From a virus (Duplodnaviria > Heunggongvirae > Uroviricota > Caudoviricetes): a stretch of 20,534 nucleotides of DNA. Numbering within the stretch: position 1 is the first letter of the stretch; each line of letters begins with the position of its first letter. Under the pieces are notes generated by a model. It was not told the DNA's origin, did not search any database, and was given only the letters and a program-made list of their open reading frames with translations. The stretch lies in the IMG/VR virus record IMGVR_UViG_2718218127_000002, positions 1 through 20,534 of that record. The stretch is one strand, 5' to 3'. Position numbers and translations under genes: made by a program. Of this stretch, positions 1-19,390 are shown piece by piece.

Positions 1-258
1 ATGCAAACCGTTATTTTTGGTCGTTCGGGTTGCCCTTACTGTGTGCGTGCAAAAGATCTGGCTGAGAAATTGAGCAATGAACGCGATGATTTTCAGTATC
101 AGTATGTAGATATTCGTGCGGAAGGGATCACTAAAGAAGATCTACAACAAAAGGCAGGTAAACCCGTAGAAACCGTGCCGCAGATTTTTGTCGATCAGCA
201 ACATATCGGCGGCTATACCGATTTTGCTGCATGGGTGAAAGAAAATCTGGACGCCTGA
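1..258 (+). CDS. grxA: Glutaredoxin 1
   Basis: 85-aa ORF with CPYC active-site motif (GCPYCVRAKDLAEKL); translation matches my memory of E. coli GrxA essentially over its full length; ATG start, TGA stop. Confidence 0.93.
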   Translation: MQTVIFGRSGCPYCVRAKDLAEKLSNERDDFQYQYVDIRAEGITKEDLQQKAGKPVETVPQIFVDQQHIGGYTDFAAWVKENLDA

Positions 259-4265: not shown

Positions 4266-4747
4266 GACAGCAGCCCTCCCACCGTTTTACTGATATCGCT
4301 TAAGGCAGACGTTGCCGTGTCCTGCAGATTATTCAGTTGCGCACTGAGATCACCGAACATATCGGACAATGATTCATCCACCCTTTTGAGCGACAGGGTG
4401 AACTCAATCCGGCGCGGCATACCGTCGCGGAAAAACTCCGTTTTAGTCTGATTCAGTCCCTCAATCACATACATGCCATAAATCGTGCCGCTGCCTTCAA
4501 TCAGGGGCCATGCTTTCCCCTGTTCTGCCATCTGCTCCAGTGCCAGCAACGACAGCCTGCCACCTGTTATCTCCGGCATAAGAACACCGGAAAGCGTCAG
4601 CATGTCGTTGTCCGGTCCCAGAAACTGCGTGGACGGACGTCGGTTTACCCGGCTGTTTGCCGCATGTCGCCAGCTGCGTTGATACTGCAGCTCCTGATAC
4701 GGCACGGTGCGCAGCATAAACACGTACAATCCCAGCACCATCATCAT
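4262..4747 (-). CDS. U: P2 gpU-like tail protein
   Basis: 161-aa ORF between T and D, ATGA start/stop overlap with T; size and position as P2 U. Confidence 0.8.
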   Translation of the reverse strand: MMMVLGLYVFMLRTVPYQELQYQRSWRHAANSRVNRRPSTQFLGPDNDMLTLSGVLMPEITGGRLSLLALEQMAEQGKAWPLIEGSGTIYGMYVIEGLNQTKTEFFRDGMPRRIEFTLSLKRVDESLSDMFGDLSAQLNNLQDTATSALSDISKTVGGLLS

Positions 4748-7700
4748 GCGTCGTATCCCCCCTGATCGCTGTAGTTACTCCTGGCTTTTGCCTTCAGCCT
4801 GCGTTCACGTTCATCAAGCTGGCGGGCCACCTCCCGCGCAATATCCTGCGCACTTTGTCCTGGCTGCGTCTGAATGATGATCTGCATCGGTGCCTCAATC
4901 CGTTGAACGGGCGGCACAGTGGCTGCACGACTCACCATCGCTTCGCCGCCTTTCGCGGGAAGTGCCAAAGGGTGCAACGGTGGAAGCTCTGCAGGCGCGG
5001 CAGCAACGCCCATCATTCCGGCAACAACGGCAGCCAGTGCAGCTGTATTTCTCCGGCTGGTCACATTTGCCGGGCCGTTAACAATTTCCGGCCCGTTTTC
5101 ACCGACGATGCCAAACTGCCCGCGCGGGATATAGCCGCCGCTGTCATACATCCCCGCAAAGCCATATCCCCATGATGGAAAACCACCCGATGGCATCATC
5201 ACTTTACCGTCTGCATTCACCGTCGCAGGTTGCTGACGCGTCACGCTTTCCGGCAGTTTTGCCTTTGCGGCCTCTTTACTGACAATGCCGAGCTTCTCCA
5301 GCAACCAGGAAACGCCGGATTTCAGGGAGTCCAGCGGATGCATGACCATATTCAGCCCTTCCGCCAGTGCCTCCCCGAATCGCCGCCCCATTGCCGCTGC
5401 GCTCTGCAGTTCGGCAGAGGTCGACTTAACGGGCGTCAGCAGATCAGTAAACCAGCCCCACAGCGCCTGCACTTTGTCGCCAATCCACTGGAACACGGGC
5501 TTAAGCGGTTCGAACGCTGCACTGATGGGACCTGCCGCCGCTTTGAATCCTTCCACCACGCCACCGAGAAATGCGGTGATGGGTTGCCAGTATTTCCAGA
5601 CAACCAGCGCCACGCCCGCCAGTGCAGTAACCACAAGACCTATCGGACTGAGCAGAGCACCTAACAGACCAGATATGGCATACAGGGCAACGCGCAGCAT
5701 CGCCAGTGGACCAGATGCCAGTACTCGCAGCACCGTGCCTGCGGCGGCCAGTCCACCGCGCAGTACCGCCAGAGGATTCATAAACATCACAGCAACAGCA
5801 CGTAAACCGGATAATCCAGACCGCAAAAGTGCAACCGGCGCACCTGCTACAGTTTTCAGGACATTTCCCGTCAGTGATGCCGTGCGGCGCAAAGACGACA
5901 ACGGCGCAGTAAGTAAACCTGCGGCGTTGCCCGATGAAGCAAGCCCGCGTCGCAGCAGTGCCAGTGGTGCGCCAGCCAGCCAGGACAACGCGCTGCTGGT
6001 TCGAGTTACTGCTGCCGTAACGGAAGATAACGTTTTGATACCCAACACAGAGAATCCCAGACGGATCACTGCCAGCGGCCCCAGCACTGCAGCCAGCGCC
6101 ACCGCTAAGGTGCCGAGGCCGACGGTAACCGCAGCCACAACAGCCGATGCTTTCATCAGTGTGCCTGTCAGTTCCGGGTTAGCTTCCACCCAGCGGCGCA
6201 ACGCTCCCGTGATGCTTTTCACCGTGTACAGAATATCCATCAGCGGCTGGCGCAGCGTTTCGCCCAGGCTGCTGAAGGTGTTCTGCGCTCCGGTTTTGAC
6301 CAGCAACCACTGCGCAGAAAGTGAATCCTTGTTAATGTCGGATTCTTTCTGCATGGAGCCAAGCGCATCATTGCCCGCTGTCAGTTTTAACTGACGCTGC
6401 AGTTCCGGCAGGTTGTTTGCCAGTTTCGCCGCGTCATCGCCAAACTCTTTACCAAACAACATAGTCATGGCAGACAGGCGCTTGTCCTGCGGCAGCGCGT
6501 TTACCTTCTCCAGCACGCGCTGGATGGTTCCCATCGCATCCTTCGTCATCTGCTTTTCAATCACTTCAGGATTGAGTTTCAGCAGATTCATCCCTTCAAA
6601 GAAACTCTTGCTTTGCATGGTGGCAATGGACAATTCACGCACCATCGCGTTTGCTGCACTGGCTGCAACCTCTGGCGCAGCGCCCAGTGTCAGGAAGGTG
6701 GAACCCAGCGCCGCCGCTTTACGATAATCCAGACGGTCAGCCACACCGCCCAGACGTTGCATCACATCAATGATGTCTGCCCCTTTCGACATGGCGTTAT
6801 CATCCAGATAGTTCAGCGCATCACCGAGCTGTTCAATATTGCGGGTGGGGATTTTGTAGAGCTGGGCGATTTTCCCCAGACTTTCTGACAGTTCATCCGC
6901 TGGCAGCTCAAAGGCTGTTGCCGCCTTTGCTGCCGTACTGGCGAAGGCCAGCAGGTCACGTTTCTGATCTTCCCAGCTGTCGTCAGGGTTTGCGACGTTC
7001 ATGCGCGCACCACCTTCAACCAGTGCAGCGAAGTCCACCGCACCGTTTTCCATCGGCAACTGTTCGCTGGCAGCCTTGATGGCATCCTGCATTTCATAAA
7101 AACGTGCAGTGCGGTTGCCATTATCGTCACGCAGACCATTGACCTGCTTTGCCACACCTTTCATGGCATCTTCCATGCTGGTATAGCTTTTTACTGCCGC
7201 CATCACTGGCGCACCCATTGCCAGCCCTGCAGCCGTGGTGGTGGCTCCGGCACCTGCAATACGATCACGCACCTCCAGCGAACGGGCATAACTGGCACGC
7301 GCTGCATTCATCCTGCGCTGAGCTTCCCCCAGTCGCTTCAGCCGCGCCTCCTGTTTCGAAAGTTCCTGGTTATAACGTGATGTTTCACGGGCTAAACGGG
7401 CAGTTGCTCCCGCATCGTCTTTCGCAGAAATTCCCGCCCGGTACAGTTCAGCACGCACAAGCGCCGTCTGCTGCTGCAGCTTTTTCTGGCGTTCTTCCAG
7501 GCGCTGAACAGCCAGCCGTTGACGGCCCAGAGCAACAACCTGACGTTGCGAAGGCGGCCCCATCGCTCCCAGTTCCTGACTGAGCAAATTTGCACGCTGG
7601 CGGGCATAGTTCAGCCTGTCGCCTAATTTCTGATTTTCTGCCTGCAGCTTTCGGAAGCTGTCCAGACTGCTCCCGGCCTGATCAAGCTGCTTTATTGCAT

Positions 7701-7821
7701 CGCGGGATTTTTTGACAGCAGCAGCCAGTTCTCTTGAACTGGCCTGCGCAGATCGAAATGGGCGGGTGAGCTTGTCAACCGCATTAAGAATGACCTGCAG
7801 ACGCAGGTTGTTATCACTCAT
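4744..7821 (-). CDS. T: Tail tape-measure protein (P2 gpT-like)
   Basis: 1025-aa ORF; N-terminal coiled-coil-like region rich in Q/R/A/L, central hydrophobic Ala/Leu/Gly-rich repeat block, position upstream of U and D; ATG start at 7821. Confidence 0.85.
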   Translation of the reverse strand: MSDNNLRLQVILNAVDKLTRPFRSAQASSRELAAAVKKSRDAIKQLDQAGSSLDSFRKLQAENQKLGDRLNYARQRANLLSQELGAMGPPSQRQVVALGRQRLAVQRLEERQKKLQQQTALVRAELYRAGISAKDDAGATARLARETSRYNQELSKQEARLKRLGEAQRRMNAARASYARSLEVRDRIAGAGATTTAAGLAMGAPVMAAVKSYTSMEDAMKGVAKQVNGLRDDNGNRTARFYEMQDAIKAASEQLPMENGAVDFAALVEGGARMNVANPDDSWEDQKRDLLAFASTAAKAATAFELPADELSESLGKIAQLYKIPTRNIEQLGDALNYLDDNAMSKGADIIDVMQRLGGVADRLDYRKAAALGSTFLTLGAAPEVAASAANAMVRELSIATMQSKSFFEGMNLLKLNPEVIEKQMTKDAMGTIQRVLEKVNALPQDKRLSAMTMLFGKEFGDDAAKLANNLPELQRQLKLTAGNDALGSMQKESDINKDSLSAQWLLVKTGAQNTFSSLGETLRQPLMDILYTVKSITGALRRWVEANPELTGTLMKASAVVAAVTVGLGTLAVALAAVLGPLAVIRLGFSVLGIKTLSSVTAAVTRTSSALSWLAGAPLALLRRGLASSGNAAGLLTAPLSSLRRTASLTGNVLKTVAGAPVALLRSGLSGLRAVAVMFMNPLAVLRGGLAAAGTVLRVLASGPLAMLRVALYAISGLLGALLSPIGLVVTALAGVALVVWKYWQPITAFLGGVVEGFKAAAGPISAAFEPLKPVFQWIGDKVQALWGWFTDLLTPVKSTSAELQSAAAMGRRFGEALAEGLNMVMHPLDSLKSGVSWLLEKLGIVSKEAAKAKLPESVTRQQPATVNADGKVMMPSGGFPSWGYGFAGMYDSGGYIPRGQFGIVGENGPEIVNGPANVTSRRNTAALAAVVAGMMGVAAAPAELPPLHPLALPAKGGEAMVSRAATVPPVQRIEAPMQIIIQTQPGQSAQDIAREVARQLDERERRLKAKARSNYSDQGGYDA

Positions 7822-7879
7822 CGTTGGCCCCGCTTCTCTGAATCGCTTTATACCGCCATTCCAGCACTTCGGTCAGGCG

Positions 7880-8497
7880 TGCATGGTGGACAGCTGGGAA
7901 GTCTGGACCGACTTTCATGCACTGGCCCTGCGCCCGTTTGGCTGGCGCGAAGTATGGATCGGTTATGACCCCGCAAAAGGTACTCAGAACGGCGACAGTG
8001 CCGGATGCGTGGTGGTGGCACCGCCAGCCGTACCGGGCGGTAAATTCCGCATTCTTGAGCGTCACCAGTGGCGCGGGATGGACTTCCGCGCTCAGGCTGA
8101 CGCCATCAAAAAACTGACCGAACAGTACAACGTGACTTATATCGGTATCGACTCAACCGGCGTTGGTCACGGGGTTTACGAGAACGTGAAAGCATTCTTT
8201 CCTGCCGTCCGGGAGTTTGTCTACAACCCCAACGTTAAAAACGCCCTGGTGCTCAAGGCCTACGACATTATCAGCCACCGCCGTCTGGAGTTTGACGCCG
8301 GACACACCGACATTGCGCAGTCATTCATGGCAATCCGTCGCGCCACCACCGCCAGCGGCAACCGCCCGACCTATGAAGCCAGCCGCAGCGAAGAAGCCAG
8401 CCATGCCGATCTGGCCTGGGCAACAATGCACGCACTGTTTAACGAACCGCTGCAAGGCGAGTCCGCCAATACCAGCAATATTGTGGAGATTTTTTGA
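7880..8497 (+). pseudogene. P: 5'-truncated terminase large (ATPase/nuclease) subunit gene, P2 gpP-like, C-terminal nuclease domain only
   Basis: Open frame encodes only about 200-260 aa with RNaseH-like nuclease-domain acidic motifs (WIGYDPAKG, YIGIDSTGVG, SHADLAWA) and an ATGA overlap with the Q start, as in P2 P-Q; the N-terminal ATPase domain is absent and the frame runs into the divergent T gene start. The 5' boundary is approximate. Confidence 0.7.
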
Positions 8498-9522
8498 TGG
8501 GAAAGAGTAAGAAGAACCGCGCTGCGGCGACGAAACAGATCCAGCTTAAAAGTCAAACTACAGCCGAAGCATTCAGCTTCGGCGATCCCGTTCCTGTTCT
8601 GGACCGCCGAGAACTGCTGGACTATGTGGAATGCGTACAGACAGATCGCTGGTATGAGCCGCCAGTAAGCTTTGACGGACTGGCGCGCACCTTCCGCGCC
8701 GCCGTGCATCACAGTTCACCAATTGCGGTGAAATGCAACATTCTGACCAGTACCTACATCCCTCACCCGCTGCTCAGCCAGCAGGCTTTTTCACGTTTTG
8801 TGCAGGACTATCTGGTATTTGGTAACGCCTACCTGGAGAAACGCACGAACCGCTTCGGTGAAGTTATCGCCCTTGAGCCTGCTCTGGCAAAATACACCCG
8901 ACGCGGGTTAGACCTGGATACCTACTGGTTTGTGCAATACGGTATGACAACCCAGCCGTATCAGTTCACGAAAGGCAGCATTTTTCATCTGATGGAACCG
9001 GACATTAACCAGGAGATCTACGGCCTGCCCGGCTATCTTTCTGCCATTCCGTCCGCCCTGCTCAATGAGTCCGCCACGCTGTTCCGCCGCAAGTATTACA
9101 TTAACGGTAGTCATGCAGGCTTCATCATGTACATGACCGATGCTGCGCAGAACCAGGAGGACGTGAACAACCTCCGCAATGCAATGAAAAGTGCCAAAGG
9201 TCCGGGTAACTTCCGCAACCTGTTTATGTACTCGCCTAACGGCAAAAAGGACGGGCTTCAGATTATCCCGTTGTCAGAGGTGGCGGCGAAGGATGAGTTT
9301 TTGAATATCAAGAACGTGAGCCGCGATGACATGATGGCTGCGCACCGCGTGCCGCCGCAAATGATGGGGATTATGCCTAATAATGTTGGAGGGTTTGGGG
9401 ATGTGGAGAAGGCCGCAAATGTGTTTGTGCGCAATGAACTTTTGCCATTACAGAAACGCATGGAGGAGTTAAACCATTGGCTGGGTGAGAAAGTTATTGC
9501 ATTTTCATCCTATTGTTTATGA
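8497..9522 (+). CDS. Q: Portal protein (P2 gpQ-like)
   Basis: 341 aa from ATG at 8497 (GGAG 8 nt upstream, overlaps P stop); size and position match P2 Q downstream of P. Confidence 0.8.
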   Translation: MGKSKKNRAAATKQIQLKSQTTAEAFSFGDPVPVLDRRELLDYVECVQTDRWYEPPVSFDGLARTFRAAVHHSSPIAVKCNILTSTYIPHPLLSQQAFSRFVQDYLVFGNAYLEKRTNRFGEVIALEPALAKYTRRGLDLDTYWFVQYGMTTQPYQFTKGSIFHLMEPDINQEIYGLPGYLSAIPSALLNESATLFRRKYYINGSHAGFIMYMTDAAQNQEDVNNLRNAMKSAKGPGNFRNLFMYSPNGKKDGLQIIPLSEVAAKDEFLNIKNVSRDDMMAAHRVPPQMMGIMPNNVGGFGDVEKAANVFVRNELLPLQKRMEELNHWLGEKVIAFSSYCL

Positions 9523-9531
9523 GATATAAAT

Positions 9532-9573
9532 TGGTGGCCTTAATTATATAGCCACCATATTGCTTTTTATTTT
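9532..9573. terminator. Putative terminator between convergent Q and TIR gene
   Basis: tggtggc / gccacca inverted repeat with AT-rich loop followed by tattgctttttatttt on the + strand. Confidence 0.4.
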
Positions 9574-10379
9574 ACTCTAAAGGCATCATCGGCTTTATGT
9601 GGTATAGGAGCATAACGCTCGGTACTTACTCGATGTAGCACCGCAAATATATTCAAAGGTGAACCATCCTTTAACCTAAGAGAAACATACATTGGCATCG
9701 TTGGTGTTAACCCCCGATTTAGGCCAACAGTGGCACCACTTACTTTCATACCATTTTCTAAAGATGCATTTTCAATAAACCCCTGAGTGAATGTGCTTTC
9801 TCCATTGACCATAACAACAACATCATCATGCTTAATTGTATTATCCATAATCATCATAAAATCAGCAATTGGTTCTAAAAAATCCATTGCTGATAATTTC
9901 ACTATCTTACCCCCATCACCATCCTTAATATCATAGGAGAGGTTTGAATACTTCTCAGGATTAGGAATATACGTATTTTGTTGATTAATGACATCTATAA
10001 TTTGTCTTATTGCCACATCGATCCCATACGAATAAAGATCAATATATAGCGTTTGAGTAAGCAGAGCAGGCAAGGATATATTCTGGCAACGTATTGGTAT
10101 AAATTTACACTTCCCGGACGATGCCTTAATTAAAGCATTTTGCCATTCCATTTTTACCATGTTACTTGCCAAACTATTTTCTGTGACAAAAAAGAAAAAG
10201 AACGATACATTCTCCATTCCTAAATTCATCTTGTCAATAATACCCTCTCCGGGTTGGATAGACCAAGAATCGTAGAATACGTTATCACGCCCATAAACAT
10301 CTGCTAGTTTTTCCGCTATAACACTTACAAACCTTTTGTCACGGTGATTATGACTTAGAAAGATCATAGCATGCCCCAT
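9567..10379 (-). CDS. TIR-domain protein with uncharacterised C-terminal domain (candidate defence protein)
   Basis: N-terminal 140 aa show the bacterial TIR pattern: IFLSHNHRDKRFV (betaA/alphaA), NVFYDSWSIQPGEGI, VSFFFFFVTENSLASNMVKMEWQNAL (hydrophobic strand, then Ser-x5-Glu where the catalytic Glu is expected). Start is either ATG 10379 or ATG 10367. AT-rich relative to the phage backbone. Confidence 0.6.
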   Translation of the reverse strand: MGHAMIFLSHNHRDKRFVSVIAEKLADVYGRDNVFYDSWSIQPGEGIIDKMNLGMENVSFFFFFVTENSLASNMVKMEWQNALIKASSGKCKFIPIRCQNISLPALLTQTLYIDLYSYGIDVAIRQIIDVINQQNTYIPNPEKYSNLSYDIKDGDGGKIVKLSAMDFLEPIADFMMIMDNTIKHDDVVVMVNGESTFTQGFIENASLENGMKVSGATVGLNRGLTPTMPMYVSLRLKDGSPLNIFAVLHRVSTERYAPIPHKADDAFRVK

Positions 10380-10448
10380 TAGAAATTAATGTGTAAGATC
10401 TGCGTAGAGAGTCACCGACAGTGTACCAATAATAATCTTCTGCGCGCA

Positions 10449-10467
10449 ATCGTATCCCCGCCACGCC
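10449..10467 (-). other. cos-like cohesive-end sequence (putative packaging site remnant)
   Basis: Minus-strand sequence GGCGTGGCGGGGATACGAT; the first 13 nt are identical to the 19-nt cohesive end I recall for phage 186 (GGCGTGGCGGGGAAAGCAT; P2 GGCGAGGCGGGGAAAGCAC), 16/19 overall; lies in a GC-richer segment between two AT-rich genes. Confidence 0.45.
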
Positions 10468-10667
10468 TGCCCACTTTATGTAGTGGTTTTCATGCACCTG
10501 CATGACATAAGCAAAAGCACGCCAGTTCTGGCTGGCATCAGCGAAAACGATCGTCATACTATCATGCGATCTCATGCGCCATATGAAGTTTTCCTGACAC
10601 AGCCTTGGGTTGGGATAACACCTAACTCAGGAAGATTTTTTGTGTGTTTGTAACCCACACCTAGAGT

Positions 10668-11837
10668 TTACCAATCCATGTTTGCGGCATTATCCATCTC
10701 ACGAGTTAAGTAATTAACAAATAAGTCCATATTCCTTTCTGATTTCATCGCCTCCGCATAGGTTCCATTAGTTACGTAAGATAGTATTAAAGGACATCCA
10801 GATTCAATATAAATTTTTGCTGGGGACAGTTCTCCCTGCCACAAATTTTCAAGAAAATCGTTAATTAATTGCATTGCTTCAGGTGCCAAAAAATGCACAC
10901 CATTTCCAAACTTGAAACGTTCTTTATTTTCTCGATGAGGCAGCAATAGTGGCACAGCCCCTACACTTGAGTGAAATTCCAATGCTTGCCCATCCTTACC
11001 GAAGGCGCCATGGGCTACAAAATTACGCACCTGTTTTCTGAGTATAAGTAAACGATCATAGAACAATTTTAGACTGGAAGAGTTAATATCAATGGCTAAT
11101 TTGAATTTCTCCCCCCATTCTTTTCCAACTTTATCAGCCACATCATTCCCATTTTTTATCTCACCCTTCAAGATTGCAATAAGAATGAAAACATGCTCGG
11201 TCCAATTGAAAAATGACTCAATTGCAGACGTTGCTAACCACATAGCCTCTCTTCGGAGTTCAATTATCTTATTTGATTGTTCAAAAGTGGATTGTAACAG
11301 GCTGAAAAAATTATCAGACTTAAACTCACTATCAACTTCCAGTTTAGACTCTTGGCCAGCAGCAACTTCATCAAGCTTCTGTTTATATAGCTCTAAAAAA
11401 TAGCAAAACCTATCATAAAGAGAATTAGCATTGTTATTAACATTTAGATTTGAAGTCTTTGCTGCATTGTCTGCAAGCGAGTCAAAAAAATTCGTAGCAG
11501 CTTTAACCCCTGCGCAAATATGTCTCAAAACAGTTTTAGCTTGCTCTATATCATCATCACTCTTGATAAATATATCTAAACCAAGTTTACGATGTTCTAT
11601 AATTACGACAGTCCCATCAATCCGGACTGGGATAGAAAAAGAAATCTTCTCATCAACCCCACGATTTTTAAATTTCAGTAAATCTACCAAAAGAAAATAA
11701 ACGAGATAATACGGAGGTAATGAGTCTCCCAAACCCGAGCGCTTACCCCAAAAATATTCATCAAGCTCGGCAGACTCCATTGTCCCTATGACTCTTCGGA
11801 CGCGTTCTTCAACTTTAGCCAGATCCATTCCCCACAC
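10668..11837 (-). CDS. Hypothetical protein with HEPN-like R-N-x3-H motif (candidate abortive-infection/defence effector)
   Basis: 389-aa AT-rich ORF; motif RNFVAH at residues 271-276 (nt 11010-11027) fits the Rx4-6H HEPN signature with polar residue after Arg; no Walker A, SIR2 or other motif recognised by eye. Start is either GTG 11837 or ATG 11828. Confidence 0.45.
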   Translation of the reverse strand: MWGMDLAKVEERVRRVIGTMESAELDEYFWGKRSGLGDSLPPYYLVYFLLVDLLKFKNRGVDEKISFSIPVRIDGTVVIIEHRKLGLDIFIKSDDDIEQAKTVLRHICAGVKAATNFFDSLADNAAKTSNLNVNNNANSLYDRFCYFLELYKQKLDEVAAGQESKLEVDSEFKSDNFFSLLQSTFEQSNKIIELRREAMWLATSAIESFFNWTEHVFILIAILKGEIKNGNDVADKVGKEWGEKFKLAIDINSSSLKLFYDRLLILRKQVRNFVAHGAFGKDGQALEFHSSVGAVPLLLPHRENKERFKFGNGVHFLAPEAMQLINDFLENLWQGELSPAKIYIESGCPLILSYVTNGTYAEAMKSERNMDLFVNYLTREMDNAANMDW

Positions 11838-11998
11838 CGCCTTTCAATATCACTTAAGGTATTACAGCCAATGACATCGATTAAATACAGCGTAGATAAT
11901 AGGCAACTTGCTACTGTTTTCAAGGGCTTTCTGTTTCAATCCTTAGTTGACCTTGCTGACGCGAGAATCTAGTTCTCACGCCAGCAACGCCCCTGCTG

Positions 11999-12187
11999 CT
12001 AACCGAGAAGATCCATTACACGGTTATATTCATGGGCACGAATTTTCGCCATCAACTCATCAGTCAGCTCTGAAACCCACTGCAGAGCCAGCCCCTTCTC
12101 TTCATCACTACACTCACTAGCCGCTACAAGCTTAAGAAAAAAATCAATGCGCTGGAGCTTCAAAGACTCCAAAAAATAGTCCTGCAT
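11999..12187 (-). CDS. Small hypothetical protein (62 aa)
   Basis: ATG at 12187 preceded by a strong SD (taGGAGGaaaaATG); the longer 96-aa track ORF has no SD. Located immediately downstream of A, in the position of P2 orf91. Confidence 0.5.
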   Translation of the reverse strand: MQDYFLESLKLQRIDFFLKLVAASECSDEEKGLALQWVSELTDELMAKIRAHEYNRVMDLLG

Positions 12188-12340
12188 TTTTCCTCCTATG
12201 ACACCACAAGCAATACTGTATGCATAACCACTGTTTATATTTACAGTATATAATAATCTTACTGATGTAAAACGTTTTTTTACGTTCATCAGCCTGATAT
12301 GCCTGGTATTATTAAGAGCACGAATTGTTAATCCGCGTAA

Positions 12341-14755
12341 TTAATACAGGTTCCGCCACTTATCATCTTCCCACAAACGCTGGTTCCGATAGAAGATACG
12401 CAAGCCTGCTCCTGACGGAATACTGCCGCCGCGAAGGAGTAAATCGACCTCTTTCTCGCTGCCATCAAATCCTCTGGACTTCAGCTCATAGACGAGCTGC
12501 AGTCGCTGATGGTCTGTAATTCGCTGTTTGTAGTCTTTACGCCGTTTCGGTTTAACCAAGCGTAACCTTGCTGCCAGTTCCCGGCGCTCTTTTTTGCTCA
12601 TACTGTGCAGGTAATCGTGCAACTCCTTGTCATCCATGCGGGTAATGTCCGTTCTGGTGTCCCCATCAGCTGATTTATCTTTCTCCTGTTGGTTCAAATT
12701 TTCAGCAAGGGGACAGTTATTGCCACGAGTCCAAGGGGCGCAAGCGCCCTGGTCGGCTGCCGCCTCCTGAACATCAACGGCCTTACGAACCATTTTCCAC
12801 TTCACGGCATGAGTGCAGATCTTGCCCTCTGCAATAGGTGACCAGATGCCATAAATACGAATGCCGTGATCGCCATAGGCGGTCGGCTCTTCGTTGATTT
12901 CATAAGCGGTTCTGATGAGGTGATATTTGCGGGGAACCAGTACGCCGCCCTGCTTCATGATGTAGGTGGCAAAACAACCAGCATCAGCAGCAGCCAGGAT
13001 GGCATCAAGGCGTGGGTTATCCAGTACCGGCGCACCTGCTTTTTTGTCCCCCTGTTGCCTTGCCGCCTGACCAGCCAGCAATCGCAGTTCACGGTAAGCC
13101 TGACGCCCCGGAATGCCAAAGAAGCGGAATTGCTGAACACGATGCAGAGACGCCCAGGCATTAACGTATTCAGCATTATCACGCAGGGATTTCCCCGTTT
13201 CCTTGCTGATCTCGCCAGCCAGACCACGCCCGTCAATGTTCTTACTGATGTATTTCGCGATGTAGCTTGTTGGCGTTCCTTTGCGCGGGTTAATCAACTC
13301 AGACTTAAAGCGCGGCCCAGTGTTATTGCCCAGCTCCTCGCGGTCTTCACGGATGGCAAACTTACGCAGTAATGCAGTGATGGCACGGCGGTCTTTTTTG
13401 CGCATGAAACACAACAGGTGCCAGTGAACTGTGCCGTCATGATGCGGCTCAGCCACCCGCACGCCATACCAGCGCAACCCGGCTTTGTGCATCGCCTTAC
13501 GAAATGCAGCAAACATGCCGACCAGATAATCGCTGCTTTGTCTTACCGTCGCGTTTGTCCAGGTCGGGTTTGGTCTGCCGTTATTGAGCGTGGAATGGAA
13601 ACGTGACGGACAGGTGATGGTGTAGAAAACGGCGCAGTCACCGCGCATTTCCGCGATAAGCTCCAGACCTTTAACACAGGCCATCATCTCATTGCGGCGA
13701 TGCGCCGGGTTGCTGCTGCTGGCGTTTACCACATCCTCCATGTCCAGCGTGTCGCCGTCTTCGTTCACCAGTTCATGAGAACGGAAAAACTCCAGCGACT
13801 TACGGCGCTGCTCACGTTTATGCATCACGGCTTCATAGCTGACATAGGGAGATGCTTTTTTGCTGACCAGGCAGACAGCACGCAACTGCTCTTCCCGCCA
13901 TTCGCAACGCATCTTCCATAATTTCCGATACCACCAGTCGGCGCACAACATACGCGCCAGCGAACCCGGAATGAGTTCATAGGGCACGGGTTTACGGCGG
14001 TTTCTTTTCCGACGGAGTTGCTCAAACGCAGGAGGGATTACATCCAGACGCAGGGTTTCCGCTGCCACCTTTTCCCATGTCTTGCGGATTTCTTCTGGCT
14101 TAACGTCATCGGTGGCATACAAATCACCACAAGCTGCATCAAGGCACATGCTCATATGCGCGGCAACAAGGGTAGACAGGCGCTTCACCTGATCCTGACT
14201 CATTTCAGGCAGGATCAGCAGGCCGTCCAGCCCTTCATGGCTTGCCATAAAGCGAAAAGAAGTGGATAGCTGACTCTCGCGTACATGCTCCAGTCGTTCC
14301 AGACATGGCTTAATCGTCTCACGCAAATAGCGGGAATAAGCCTTTGGCCTGCCCAGGCTGCTGAAGTATTCAATACGTTGCATCAGCGGCTTGCTGATAT
14401 GGGAAGGCTGGGCGTTGACGTCCGCCAGAATGACCATATCCGGATTAAAACGCTGCTGCTCATGCGCCAGCTTTGCCCGACTAATGAGCTTATCCTGCTC
14501 GATTTCGCGCTGGACAGGATCACGGGATTCATTAAAGAAATAACGCTCCCAGACCTGATCACTCAGCGCCTCACGGCGCAGCTGTTCCTGCTCGTTATCG
14601 GCAGCGTACAGAGTGATCAGGTTTGAAAGCGCAGAAACCGGCGCAACTTCCGCCGGGTCCAGATAAGGGTTAATGGCCTTTTTCGGGCTGCTCCATGAGA
14701 ATGCTGCTGCGACCTCGTTAAAGCCGCTGCAGTTGTTCATATCAGCATGGCTCAT
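12341..14755 (-). CDS. A: Replication initiation endonuclease (P2 gpA-like rolling-circle initiator)
   Basis: 804-aa ORF with HUH-type motif (HWHLLCF) and downstream tyrosine motif ([12 protein letters not shown]) characteristic of P2 A-type nicking proteins; ATGA overlap with the upstream methyltransferase gene. Confidence 0.82.
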
Positions 14756-17188: not shown

Positions 17189-17410
17189 CTAGTTGAATAC
17201 AACATTGCAATCAGTAAGTGCATCAACGGTAAGAGCAGCAAGGTTGATCATTACCTTTTCTCTTTTCTTGTCTTTCCGAAGGCGATGCCGAGGGATGCGA
17301 CCGTCAGCCAGCATATCGTTAATTGTGTCGATTGAAAGACCAGTAAGTTCGCTATAACGCTCAATTGTGACATGTGGCGTATTCAGGGTTATTGAAATGT
17401 TAGGGGTCAT
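17189..17410 (-). CDS. cox: Cox-like excisionase/early regulator
   Basis: 73-aa basic protein divergent from the repressor gene; [28 protein letters not shown] resembles the DNA-binding region of phage Cox-family proteins; AGGAGA SD. Confidence 0.6.
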
Positions 17411-17498
17411 GATGCAACATCTCCTATTGGCTTGTGGTGAGTCAGTTTTAATCGTGGCTTTAACTTCACATTTCGGAGAATGGGATCACAAATCGGTT
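17411..17498. promoter_or_regulatory. Lysis/lysogeny switch region (divergent cox and repressor starts, presumed operators)
   Basis: Intergenic region between divergently oriented cox and repressor genes; contains the 10-bp sequence tcacatttcg (17466-17475) repeated at 17515-17524. Confidence 0.45.
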
Positions 17499-18434
17499 AT
17501 GTCAACACATGAAATCACATTTCGCCATGTGGACGAAAAAAAGAAATCCTTAATCATGCAGAATCGCGGAGGGCAATCGGTTATAGATCGGATACTGAAA
17601 GCCTATGGTTTTTCTTCCCGACAAGCATTCTGTAATCACCTAGGTATATCGCAAAGTACAATGGCGAACAGGTATGCCCGTGACACTTTCCCTGCTGATT
17701 GGGTTGTTATCTGTAGCATGGAGACTGGAGTGCCGGTCGAGTGGTTGGCATTTGGCACTGATACCGAGAAGGGAAGCATTACAAATAATGCAGAAAAAAG
17801 TCACAACAATTGTGACAGCAAGCATCAACATCTCAATAGAGAACAAGACATCCAAAATGAGAACTCTTTTACTATTAACCAAGGTGGAAAAGCAGCAATA
17901 GAGCGAATCGTTTTGGCTTATGGATTTAAGACAAGACAAGCTTTAGCTGATCATATTGGTGTATCAAAAAGTACATTAGCCAATCGTTACATGAGAGATA
18001 CCTTTCCTGCTGACTGGATTATTCAATGCTCACTGGAAACCGGTGCTTCATTAACATGGCTAACCACTGGTAACGGGGCAATGTTTGAAAAGCCTCGAAA
18101 CGATACTATCACTATCCCATATCATAAAATAATTGATGGATCTCTTGCTCAAGAAACCTTCTTGACTTTTGACTCTAAGTTGTTAGAAGGAACCTTTCTG
18201 CAACCTTTAGCAGTATTCATTGATGAGGAAATATATATTGTAGAATCAAAATTTAATGAAGTTACTGATGGCAAGTGGCTTGTGAATATTGAAGGGAAAA
18301 TAAGTATCAAAGATTTGACTCGCATACCCGTTGGTATGGTTAAAGTTGTAGGCACTAACGCAAGTTTTGAATGCTTACTTACTGACATTATCGTTTTGGC
18401 AAAATGTAAAAGAGTTTTTACTAAAAATGTATAA
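17499..18434 (+). CDS. Immunity repressor with tandemly duplicated CI-type (phage 186 CI-like) N-terminal DNA-binding domain
   Basis: Two about 63-aa internal repeats (residues encoded at 17568-17756 and 17883-18074) share the pattern GG-x-IxRI-AYGF-RQA-HxG-S-ST-ANRY-RDTFPADW-CS-ETG-WL; divergent from cox. The region upstream of ATG 17499 in the track ORF looks non-coding. Confidence 0.6.
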   Translation: MSTHEITFRHVDEKKKSLIMQNRGGQSVIDRILKAYGFSSRQAFCNHLGISQSTMANRYARDTFPADWVVICSMETGVPVEWLAFGTDTEKGSITNNAEKSHNNCDSKHQHLNREQDIQNENSFTINQGGKAAIERIVLAYGFKTRQALADHIGVSKSTLANRYMRDTFPADWIIQCSLETGASLTWLTTGNGAMFEKPRNDTITIPYHKIIDGSLAQETFLTFDSKLLEGTFLQPLAVFIDEEIYIVESKFNEVTDGKWLVNIEGKISIKDLTRIPVGMVKVVGTNASFECLLTDIIVLAKCKRVFTKNV

Positions 18435-18445
18435 AGAGAAACATC

Positions 18446-19390
18446 ATGACTGAACCAACCAATAAAGATAGCGAAATAAAAAAACACCTATTAGAATTTC
18501 TTGATTCACAGTCTGAAAATATAGCAAAACACTTCTACTCTCATATAAAAGACTTAATAGAAGCAGGAGAGCTTTCTGAAGCTCATAATAACCTAGCGCT
18601 AATTGAAAAATACATAACTAGGCCACCGATGGATGAAGAACCCAATATAAATGAAAATAAAGCCAATAAAAGAAAAAATGTAAAATCACTTGAACCTAAT
18701 AATTATGTAGAACATATAATACAATTAGAAGAACGAAACAGCATATTAACTCTACAGTTAGAGCATTATACTCAGGATCTTAATAGAAAAAACGCAATAA
18801 TCGAAAACAACGTAAAACAAATTAATTCATTGATTAGTGAAAATAAGGAACTCCGTAGCCAAGTACAGCAACAAAGAATCGATGATAAAATCCCCACCTA
18901 TGTTAACGATGTTAAATCAGATCTTGGTAGTGATGACAAACATTTTATATTGATGTCTATTATCTGGTCTATTGCAGGGGTATTTTTTGGCTTCCTTGCA
19001 GTAGTATCTGCTTTTTTTACATTATACATGAACTTAGATTTAAAAAATCTCACTAACCTTCAGTTAATATATATCTTCACGCGAGGATTAGTTGGAATCG
19101 CCATTCTTTCATGGCTATCATATATCTGCCTTAGTAACTCAAAAAAGTACACACATGAATCGATCAGGCGAAAAGATCGTCGACATGCTTTGATGTTTGG
19201 TCAAGTTTTTTTGCAGATATACGGTTCTACAGCAACTAAAGAGGATGCAATAGAAGTCTTTAAGGATTGGAATATTTCAGGTGACTCTGCATTTTCAGGT
19301 CAGACAGAGCAACCACCGAGTTTTGCGTCATTTTTGAATACAATCAAAGACAAAGTTAAAGTAACTGGAAGTGATAAAGAAACAGATTAA
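18446..19390 (+). CDS. Hypothetical coiled-coil protein with two predicted transmembrane helices
   Basis: 314-aa AT-rich ORF 11 nt downstream of the repressor gene; heptad-like N-terminal region and two hydrophobic stretches (ILMSIIWSIAGVFFGFLAVVSAFF and GLVGIAILSWLSYICL). Confidence 0.65.
   Translation: MTEPTNKDSEIKKHLLEFLDSQSENIAKHFYSHIKDLIEAGELSEAHNNLALIEKYITRPPMDEEPNINENKANKRKNVKSLEPNNYVEHIIQLEERNSILTLQLEHYTQDLNRKNAIIENNVKQINSLISENKELRSQVQQQRIDDKIPTYVNDVKSDLGSDDKHFILMSIIWSIAGVFFGFLAVVSAFFTLYMNLDLKNLTNLQLIYIFTRGLVGIAILSWLSYICLSNSKKYTHESIRRKDRRHALMFGQVFLQIYGSTATKEDAIEVFKDWNISGDSAFSGQTEQPPSFASFLNTIKDKVKVTGSDKETD

Follow-up and report, generated by a model that had tools for sequence, protein, structure and literature searches.

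The window, that is, the whole stretch of DNA analysed here, is a P2-like prophage of 20,534 nucleotides (IMG/VR record IMGVR_UViG_2718218127_000002), and the 389-codon open reading frame (ORF) on its minus strand at 10668-11837 encodes a protein that very probably contains a HEPN domain with an intact motif. We regard the assignment of fold and motif as highly probable and a role of the protein in defence as likely. Because a HEPN-type domain with an invariant signature is here found without a partner, in a mobile gene of low guanine-plus-cytosine (GC) content placed in a defence hotspot, we favour as fairly probable the reading of the whole as a stand-alone, single-protein anti-phage effector of the abortive-infection type, belonging to a new and unnamed HEPN family. 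Residue numbers refer to the 389-codon ORF unless RefSeq numbering is named.

The RNFVAH motif and its conservation

The features on which the assignment is built are the following.

10668..11837, minus strand: 389-codon ORF, GTG start at 11837
11010..11027, minus strand: RNFVAH (R271-N272-F-V-A-H276), proposed HEPN Rx4H catalytic motif, followed by the invariant G277 (translation and conservation)
11196..11198, minus strand: Glu214 in the WTEH motif of helix 2, invariant in 195 homologs

A sequence-only reading had proposed RNFVAH at 11010-11027 as the active site of a HEPN ribonuclease (RNase). The plus strand reads ATGGGCTACAAAATTACG at these positions and its reverse complement, CGT AAT TTT GTA GCC CAT, gives R-N-F-V-A-H; re-translation thus recovered the motif at residues 271-276 on the minus strand, where, as had also been stated, it occurs once; it is the sole Rx4-6H of the 389-aa protein. 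At the level of a single sequence the hexapeptide by itself is weak evidence and proves little, since among 20,000 shuffles of the protein 62% held some Rx4-6H and 2% held RNxxxH (13% for R[NDH]x3-5H). The motif goes beyond chance because R271, N272, H276 and G277 are conserved across homologs.

These homologs form a large family. Although the 389-aa protein gave no above-threshold match in Pfam, PADLOC, NCBIfam or PHROGs, more than 1,000 homologous clusters were found at 90% identity, all unnamed, and an exhaustive HMMER search returned 992 clusters at 50% identity with E up to 1e-3, 330 of them with E up to 1e-30. The genomes concerned belong to Proteobacteria, Nitrospirota, Acidobacteriota, Bacteroidota, Chlorobi, Cyanobacteria, Chloroflexi and Saccharibacteria. 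Family architecture is nearly uniform (380-400 aa), and the few longer members showed no Pfam domain and no recognisable fusion.

Conservation was examined in 36 diverse homologs, in 195 unique full-length homologs (37-99% identity to the query) and in 109 representatives of 50%-identity clusters that cover the site. R271, N272 and H276 were invariant in the first set, and R271, N272, H276, G277, E214 and H289 were 100% invariant in the second. The exact RNxxxHG was present in 103 of the 109 representatives; two of the exceptions retain R and H with N changed to H or S, and R or H is lost in only two (one Arg to Ser and, in a fragment, His to Arg). Position 214 is E in nearly all cluster representatives and D in two. 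In a divergent subgroup (~185-200 bits), too, RNxxxHG stands at this position and the C-terminal NMDW is retained.

The real start of the protein is likely the ATG at 11828 rather than the GTG at 11837, giving 386 aa. A GGGGA Shine-Dalgarno-like sequence precedes this ATG, and homologs start at the equivalent MDL. The identical protein is WP_032248694.1 in RefSeq ("hypothetical protein", 386 aa); with the ATG start the motif is therefore R268...H273, and Glu214 is E211, in RefSeq numbering.

Predicted HEPN fold and comparison with solved and curated HEPN proteins

AlphaFold2 gave a mean predicted local distance difference test (pLDDT) of 86 and a predicted template modelling (pTM) score of 0.81 for the full protein, and a pLDDT of 81 for residues 131-389 alone; the trimmed model has the same topology, with H276 as last helical residue. 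The elements of the protein are as follows.

11448..11837, minus strand: N-terminal alpha/beta domain, ~residues 1-130, confidently folded in the model
10800..11435, minus strand: predicted HEPN domain, ~residues 135-346 (both AlphaFold2 models)
Residues 137-170, minus strand: helix 1 (full model)
Residues 174-223, minus strand: helix 2, carrying W-T-E214-H (full model)
Residues 230-237 and 241-248, minus strand: insert of two short helices (full model)
Residues 254-278 in the full and 254-276 in the trimmed model, minus strand: helix 3, RNFVAH at its C-terminal end
10887..11003, minus strand: loop after the motif, residues 279-317, a low-confidence beta-hairpin and loop (pLDDT < 50)
Residues 318-346, minus strand: helix 4, kinked (full model)
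Residues 347-389, minus strand: short C-terminal helices and tail (full model)
10671..10685, minus strand: extreme C-terminal tail A-N-M-D-W, residues 385-389 (conservation)

A placement of RNFVAH outside a helical HEPN-like fold had been named beforehand as the outcome that would speak against the assignment; in both models the motif falls inside a helical HEPN-like bundle. According to Anantharaman et al. (2013), the HEPN Rx4-6H sits at the end of the third helix, a polar residue (N, D or H) follows the Arg and helix 2 carries a conserved acidic residue that lies near the motif. The model agrees with this description in the motif that ends helix 3 (H276 lies in the last turn, before the loop), in the polar N272, in the occurrence of an invariant acid in helix 2 and in the insert between helices 2 and 3. 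Judged from its conservation, Glu214 is a candidate for the role of the second conserved acid in a HEPN active site. The expected helical HEPN fold was thus found, not, however, within the 250-330 span first proposed, the models giving ~135-346. As the HEPN domain has these limits, the N-terminal part outside it comprises ~130 residues and not the 250 originally supposed.

In the trimmed model the four helices run up and down as a bundle, the arrangement expected of HEPN, and this bundle can be superposed on experimentally solved members: eight different HEPN domains were matched over 85-90% of the target at ~3 Å, four of them in the top six. They are listed by rank, with score and residues matched.

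Rank 1: AbiA (8oz7), 10.3, 117 residues, 2.9 Å, 15% identity
Rank 2: HI0074 (1jog), 8.3, 119/135
Rank 3: HEPN toxin (8xdj), 8.2, 116/130
Rank 6: HepN toxin SO_3166 (5yep), 8.0, 120/133
Rank 18: YutE (1ylm), 7.5, 117/143
Rank 33: HEPN toxin (7ae2), 7.1, 125/141
Rank 40: AF0298 (2hsb), 7.1, 107/126
Rank 58: TTHA0636 (1wwp), 6.9, 108/119

The first of these, the HEPN domain of Lactococcus AbiA, is part of a 628-aa protein made of a reverse transcriptase-like polymerase, a helical domain and HEPN. Its motif has a 6-residue spacer (RNSNPVSH) as against the Rx4H of the window protein, which has no polymerase (no RVT or other Pfam match in residues 1-134) and starts with the ~130-aa alpha/beta region; the conserved loop and tail of the window protein are not known to be common to AbiA. 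The HepT/HepN toxins (8xdj, 5yep, 7ae2) and HI0074 superpose as whole domains (116-125 residues, 85-90% of the target, ~3 Å), and HepT/HepN share the Rx4H RNase motif with the window protein. These are minimal proteins of ~130 aa, neutralised by an adjacent MNT nucleotidyltransferase, whereas the window protein has no such conserved neighbour and possesses extra N- and C-terminal parts.

Csx1/Csm6 CARF-HEPN proteins are the only families with repeated sub-threshold sequence matches. Five PADLOC families were matched by any of the 36 members, three of them Csx1/Csm6-type CARF-HEPN models; besides three CARF_HEPN matches, Csx1 or Csx1/Csm6 matches occurred in two further members. The CARF_HEPN matches join residues ~153-279 to model positions 239-353 of 383, which is the HEPN part, and stop just past the motif; all these weak recurrent matches are to Csx1/Csm6-type HEPN models and all end at RNxxAH. 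The remote-homology column of DefensePredictor likewise gives Csm6/Csx1 for the identical protein (56.4% probability, 3.6% coverage). Csx1, as described by Anantharaman et al. (2013), has a beta-hairpin after the motif, as has the window protein in its low-confidence prediction. Unlike Csx1/Csm6, the window protein shows no CARF match, has a three-stranded antiparallel sheet in its N-terminal domain and no CRISPR association; moreover, the matches are statistically weak and missing from most family members.

Several observations weigh against the favoured reading. There was no significant match to any curated HEPN model, the Pfam Csx1_HEPN match reached E = 0.051 (residues 222-282) in 1 of the 36 members and the PADLOC CARF_HEPN matches (E = 7e-4 to 0.018) are weak and confined to 3 of the 36, related to each other. 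With a profile of the pEK499-p136 HEPN family (PF18736) built from 30 sequences, hhalign brought the RNxxAH motifs and ~55 preceding residues into register, but at P = 0.017 and a probability of 2.7%. Foldseek of the full model against the PDB yielded coiled-coil noise only (best E = 0.14), and both structure models are monomer predictions. As to activity, the accessible part of the published record describes no obvious RNase requirement for the AbiA HEPN and reports that some HEPN domains just bind ligands. Finally, the DefensePredictor call for the identical protein is a machine-learning prediction.

The Csx1_HEPN match was dropped as stand-alone evidence, being found in a single member and at an E-value similar to that of random matches. 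Also set aside were hhalign comparisons with a single HEPN sequence and with a DUF4145 protein, the latter aligning on an unrelated stretch, and a sequence-profile search of the PDB returned no match with E up to 10. Membership in the HEPN superfamily is therefore a matter of structure, topology and invariant residues, not of sequence statistics.

The cargo slot at cos and the rival explanations

The 389-aa gene sits between the gpA and portal genes, in a cargo region with 34-44% GC against 52-58% in the flanks. The features of the locus are given below.

12341-14755: gpA, replication gene A (Phage_GPA, E = 1e-127)
8494-9522: portal gene (Pfam search)
10449..10467 (region 10439-10499), minus strand: equivalent of the cos cohesive end, GGCGTGGCGGGGATACGAT (alignment to P2)
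11896..11923, minus strand: sigma-70-like promoter candidate, TTGAAA, 16 nt, TATTAT (10/12 consensus matches)

The cos region matches the circularised P2 cosR/cosL junction at 47 of 61 positions (E = 1e-9), and within this alignment the annotated 19-nt P2 cohesive end GGCGAGGCGGGGAAAGCAC stands opposite the window minus strand at 10467-10449. The cos alignment therefore puts the 389-aa gene between gpA and cos, in the classical tin/old slot; cos bounds this slot downstream and separates the gene from a TIR gene beyond it. The TIR gene occupies a second slot, from cos to portal, that in P2 holds a terminator only; in SopE-phi, too, cargo lies on both sides of the cos element. As cos stands between the two cargo genes, the cargo 'island' is in fact two separate slots, one per side of cos. 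A 137-bp segment (10441-10577) common to both alternative arrangements of the locus recurs without annotation in 622 of the 5,426 complete E. coli genomes analysed and in 79 P2-like phage records. The 75-aa ORF 10348-10575 (minus strand) overlies this conserved region and straddles the module junction; its first 46 residues match phrog_28685, and some records of phages and genomes annotate similar 'hypothetical proteins' of ~41-47 aa over the cos region. The ORF was probably called spuriously on conserved non-coding DNA.

The gpA-cos slot of P2 has been described as a defence hotspot (Rousset et al. 2022). The proposal that the gene lies in a phage defence hotspot was borne out both by its position between gpA and cos and by the identical protein, WP_032248694, in the P2-hotspot table of the same study, listed there as "hypothetical" and with yet other neighbours. 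The lysogenic-conversion genes old and tin of P2 use the same slot, which extends from gpA/orf91 to cos and forms the right end of P2-type genomes; they are unrelated to the window protein, Old being an ATPase-nuclease and Tin blocking T-even phages, and are transcribed away from cos, whereas the window gene is transcribed toward it. The segment that travels with the 389-aa gene extends from 10441/10578 to 12010 and holds one ORF and the promoter-like site 11923-11896, ~60-90 nt upstream of the start. This site is a consensus match only, such sites being no more frequent in the region than in shuffled sequence. In other E. coli prophages the segment is replaced, as for variable, independently exchanged cargo.

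The gene is rare in E. coli: nine of the 5,426 complete genomes carry it, and one more a 69%-identical copy. The TIR gene occurs in eight and together with the 389-aa gene in two, strains EA7 and 45E, whose arrangement is the same as in the window. In seven genomes the 389-aa gene is accompanied not by the TIR gene but by one for a 557-aa hypothetical protein, and in others the TIR gene occurs with a DUF4145 protein replacing the 389-aa gene. A tblastn search with the 389-aa protein found no match in 50,697 GenBank phage records; relatives are encoded on five IMG/VR viral contigs, two of them distant. At 80 homolog loci from other species, a search for a conserved partner gene found no neighbour family in more than five loci, and the 25 commonest neighbour Pfam families included no nucleotidyltransferase, as a HEPN-MNT pair would have; no cas genes were found among the neighbours of these loci. 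Neighbours included GajB-like UvrD helicases, defence-associated reverse transcriptases (Drt8, UG17), an MkoA-like helicase, RES, PemK, Fic, Mrr and Type ISP enzymes, resolvases and the TrwB coupling protein; ordinary metabolic genes also adjoin some members. The 389-aa gene probably acts alone, with no conserved partner.

Some of these neighbours and copies deserve separate mention. The TIR gene (9567-10379, minus strand) encodes 270 aa, of which the N-terminal part is a TIR_2 domain (E = 1e-22) and the C-terminal half, ~150 residues, is uncharacterised; in most of its examined E. coli contexts, not all eight, a DUF4145 (HEPN-clan) protein lies across cos, and the TIR protein may by itself constitute a single-gene defence system. 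The 557-aa protein (WP_032248695.1; locus L082, 2734-4407, E. coli strain 1283) has no Pfam domain and is uncharacterised cargo of the cos-portal slot. The copy with 69% nucleotide identity, in E. coli SY038 (locus L084, 5999-7186), encodes 395 aa outside any P2 prophage, in a region rich in insertion sequence fragments adjoining decayed type VI secretion genes, with a 55-aa hypothetical ORF directly downstream.

The protein could instead be the effector of a two-gene, Thoeris-like system, in which the TIR protein would make a nucleotide signal that the N-terminal domain binds, activating HEPN. The window and two E. coli genomes have the two genes side by side in the same orientation, the same TIR gene lies near a different HEPN-clan protein (DUF4145) in other P2 prophages and TIR-HEPN fusions appear in Table 1 of Anantharaman et al. 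(2013). Against this, a TIR-like neighbour was seen in 1 of the 80 loci, and weakly, no neighbour family is conserved and the nine genomes with the 389-aa gene and the eight with the TIR gene have only two in common. The two genes are on separately exchanged segments, and the intervening cos, besides which there is a terminator-like hairpin, places them at opposite ends of packaged DNA; they therefore assort independently, which speaks against an operon of TIR and HEPN genes. A TIR-HEPN two-gene system was rejected because of the co-occurrence counts, the module boundaries and the position of cos, and we consider it highly improbable. A toxin of a toxin-antitoxin pair, with an unrecognised small-protein or RNA antitoxin, is also quite improbable: upstream ORFs at homolog loci belong to unrelated families, none in more than five of the 80 and with no nucleotidyltransferase among the common ones, the exchanged module holds a single ORF, and the sole small upstream ORF in the window (11999-12289, phrog_698) is P2 backbone that is also found in prophages without the gene.

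It is unlikely, though less so, that the fold is HEPN and the protein something other than an anti-phage RNase, namely an addiction toxin stabilising the prophage, a regulator that binds RNA or nucleotides, or a nuclease acting on another substrate. Non-catalytic HEPN binders exist, for example MtlR and the substrate-binding domains of nucleotidyltransferases, and the metabolic genes adjoining some family members would suit such a role. Non-catalytic HEPN domains, however, typically lack the Rx4-6H (Anantharaman et al. 2013), while here R, N, H and the helix-2 Glu are invariant. Moreover, the mobile and defence context, with patchy distribution, low GC, a site in the P2 hotspot, occurrence on viral contigs and defence-gene neighbours elsewhere, fits defence, and DefensePredictor gives log-odds of 10.6. 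That the motif is a chance or family-specific trait of a helical protein not homologous to HEPN has very little probability, as its invariance, its exact place in the fold, the acid in helix 2, the insert between helices 2 and 3 and the superposition on eight HEPN domains coincide.

Elsewhere in the window, the tape-measure gene 4744-7821 (minus strand) overlaps at its 5′ end with the terminase ORF 7712-8497 (plus strand), which encodes the C-terminal RNaseH-like domain only (261 aa; the EA7 gene has 1,767 nt). Capsid, lysis and most tail genes appear deleted, and the prophage therefore looks defective, with its cargo genes kept. Between the CI-type repressor (17367-18434, two Phage_CI_repr helix-turn-helix matches) and the integrase lies a 314-aa ORF (18446-19390, plus strand) with hydrophobic stretches and no Pfam match; this could be a further variable position that holds lysogenic-conversion cargo.

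Proposed mechanism and significance

By analogy with AbiA, HepT, Csm6/Csx1 and HepS, the protein of the favoured reading would be produced constitutively in the lysogen from its own promoter and kept inactive. The N-terminal ~130 residues, possibly with loop 279-317 and the NMDW tail, would sense an infection cue or release autoinhibition. Two HEPN domains would then pair so that their R, N and H residues build a composite, metal-independent endoribonuclease site, and cleavage of cellular and/or phage RNA at this site would halt translation, phage multiplication and growth of the cell. The analogy with HepS, an anticodon nuclease of Salmonella prophage Gifsy-1 triggered by a phage tail-tip protein (Nature 2026), is functional: it too is a prophage-encoded, constitutive, single HEPN protein that senses infection and executes abortive infection. 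It is shorter (<250 aa, motif R100-H105), and no sequence relationship to the window protein was seen. Nor was one seen to DS-11, likewise a validated single-protein HEPN system, which has a CBS sensor and whose defence depends on the HEPN R and H residues (DefensePredictor 2026).

The N-terminal domain, with its invariant G60, E63, K64, R83, K84 and G86, matched no known family in Pfam, PADLOC, NCBIfam or PHROG and is a candidate sensor or regulatory domain. Loop 279-317 is among the most conserved stretches of the protein in spite of its low model confidence (F279, G280, K281, H289, S290 and G293-A-V-P296, that is FGK...FHS..GAVP), and the tail is retained as N-M-D-[W/F] even in the most divergent subgroup; both may have a role in oligomer-dependent catalysis or autoinhibition. 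A further, tentative possibility is that the N-terminal domain, the loop with its invariant H289 and the NMD[W/F] tail together form an undescribed apparatus of trigger recognition and autoinhibition that gates the RNase, which would make the protein a mechanistically new type of self-contained HEPN immune sensor; catalysis might then involve another histidine, or the active site might be plugged by the tail. The family is large (992 clusters), spread over many phyla and without a described relative.

WP_032248694.1 has a mean log-odds of 10.6 and the label "predicted novel defense gene" in DefensePredictor (Science 2026, Table S10). It is absent from the complete tables of tested systems in the accessible part of that study, whose validated HEPN systems (HEP2, HEP3/DS-29, ANEX/DS-28, DS-11 and GNAT/DS-33) are different proteins, and the main text of the literature searched does not mention the accession. 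Given its listing by Rousset et al. (2022) and by DefensePredictor (2026), the protein is thus catalogued and computationally flagged, yet uncharacterised.

We place it as a new and unnamed family among the single-protein HEPN effectors of abortive infection, which are a well-known kind, and its discovery in the P2 hotspot is unsurprising to a specialist. To our knowledge such systems (HepS, Tha, DS-11) are an active topic, their triggers and RNA targets being mostly not known. Since no Pfam, NCBIfam, PHROGs or PADLOC model exists, defence-annotation pipelines miss the family, for which a model would be easy to build. If the favoured reading is true, it would add one more HEPN defence family and not a new principle; if it is wrong, little is lost. 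What it does is to turn a "hypothetical protein" into a testable hypothesis: a HEPN domain at ~135-346 with R271, N272, H276 and E214 as predicted catalytic residues and a separable candidate sensor, encoded by a lone gene. Its value lies in this precise, testable annotation of a large overlooked family, together with an unexplained N-terminal domain, loop and tail.

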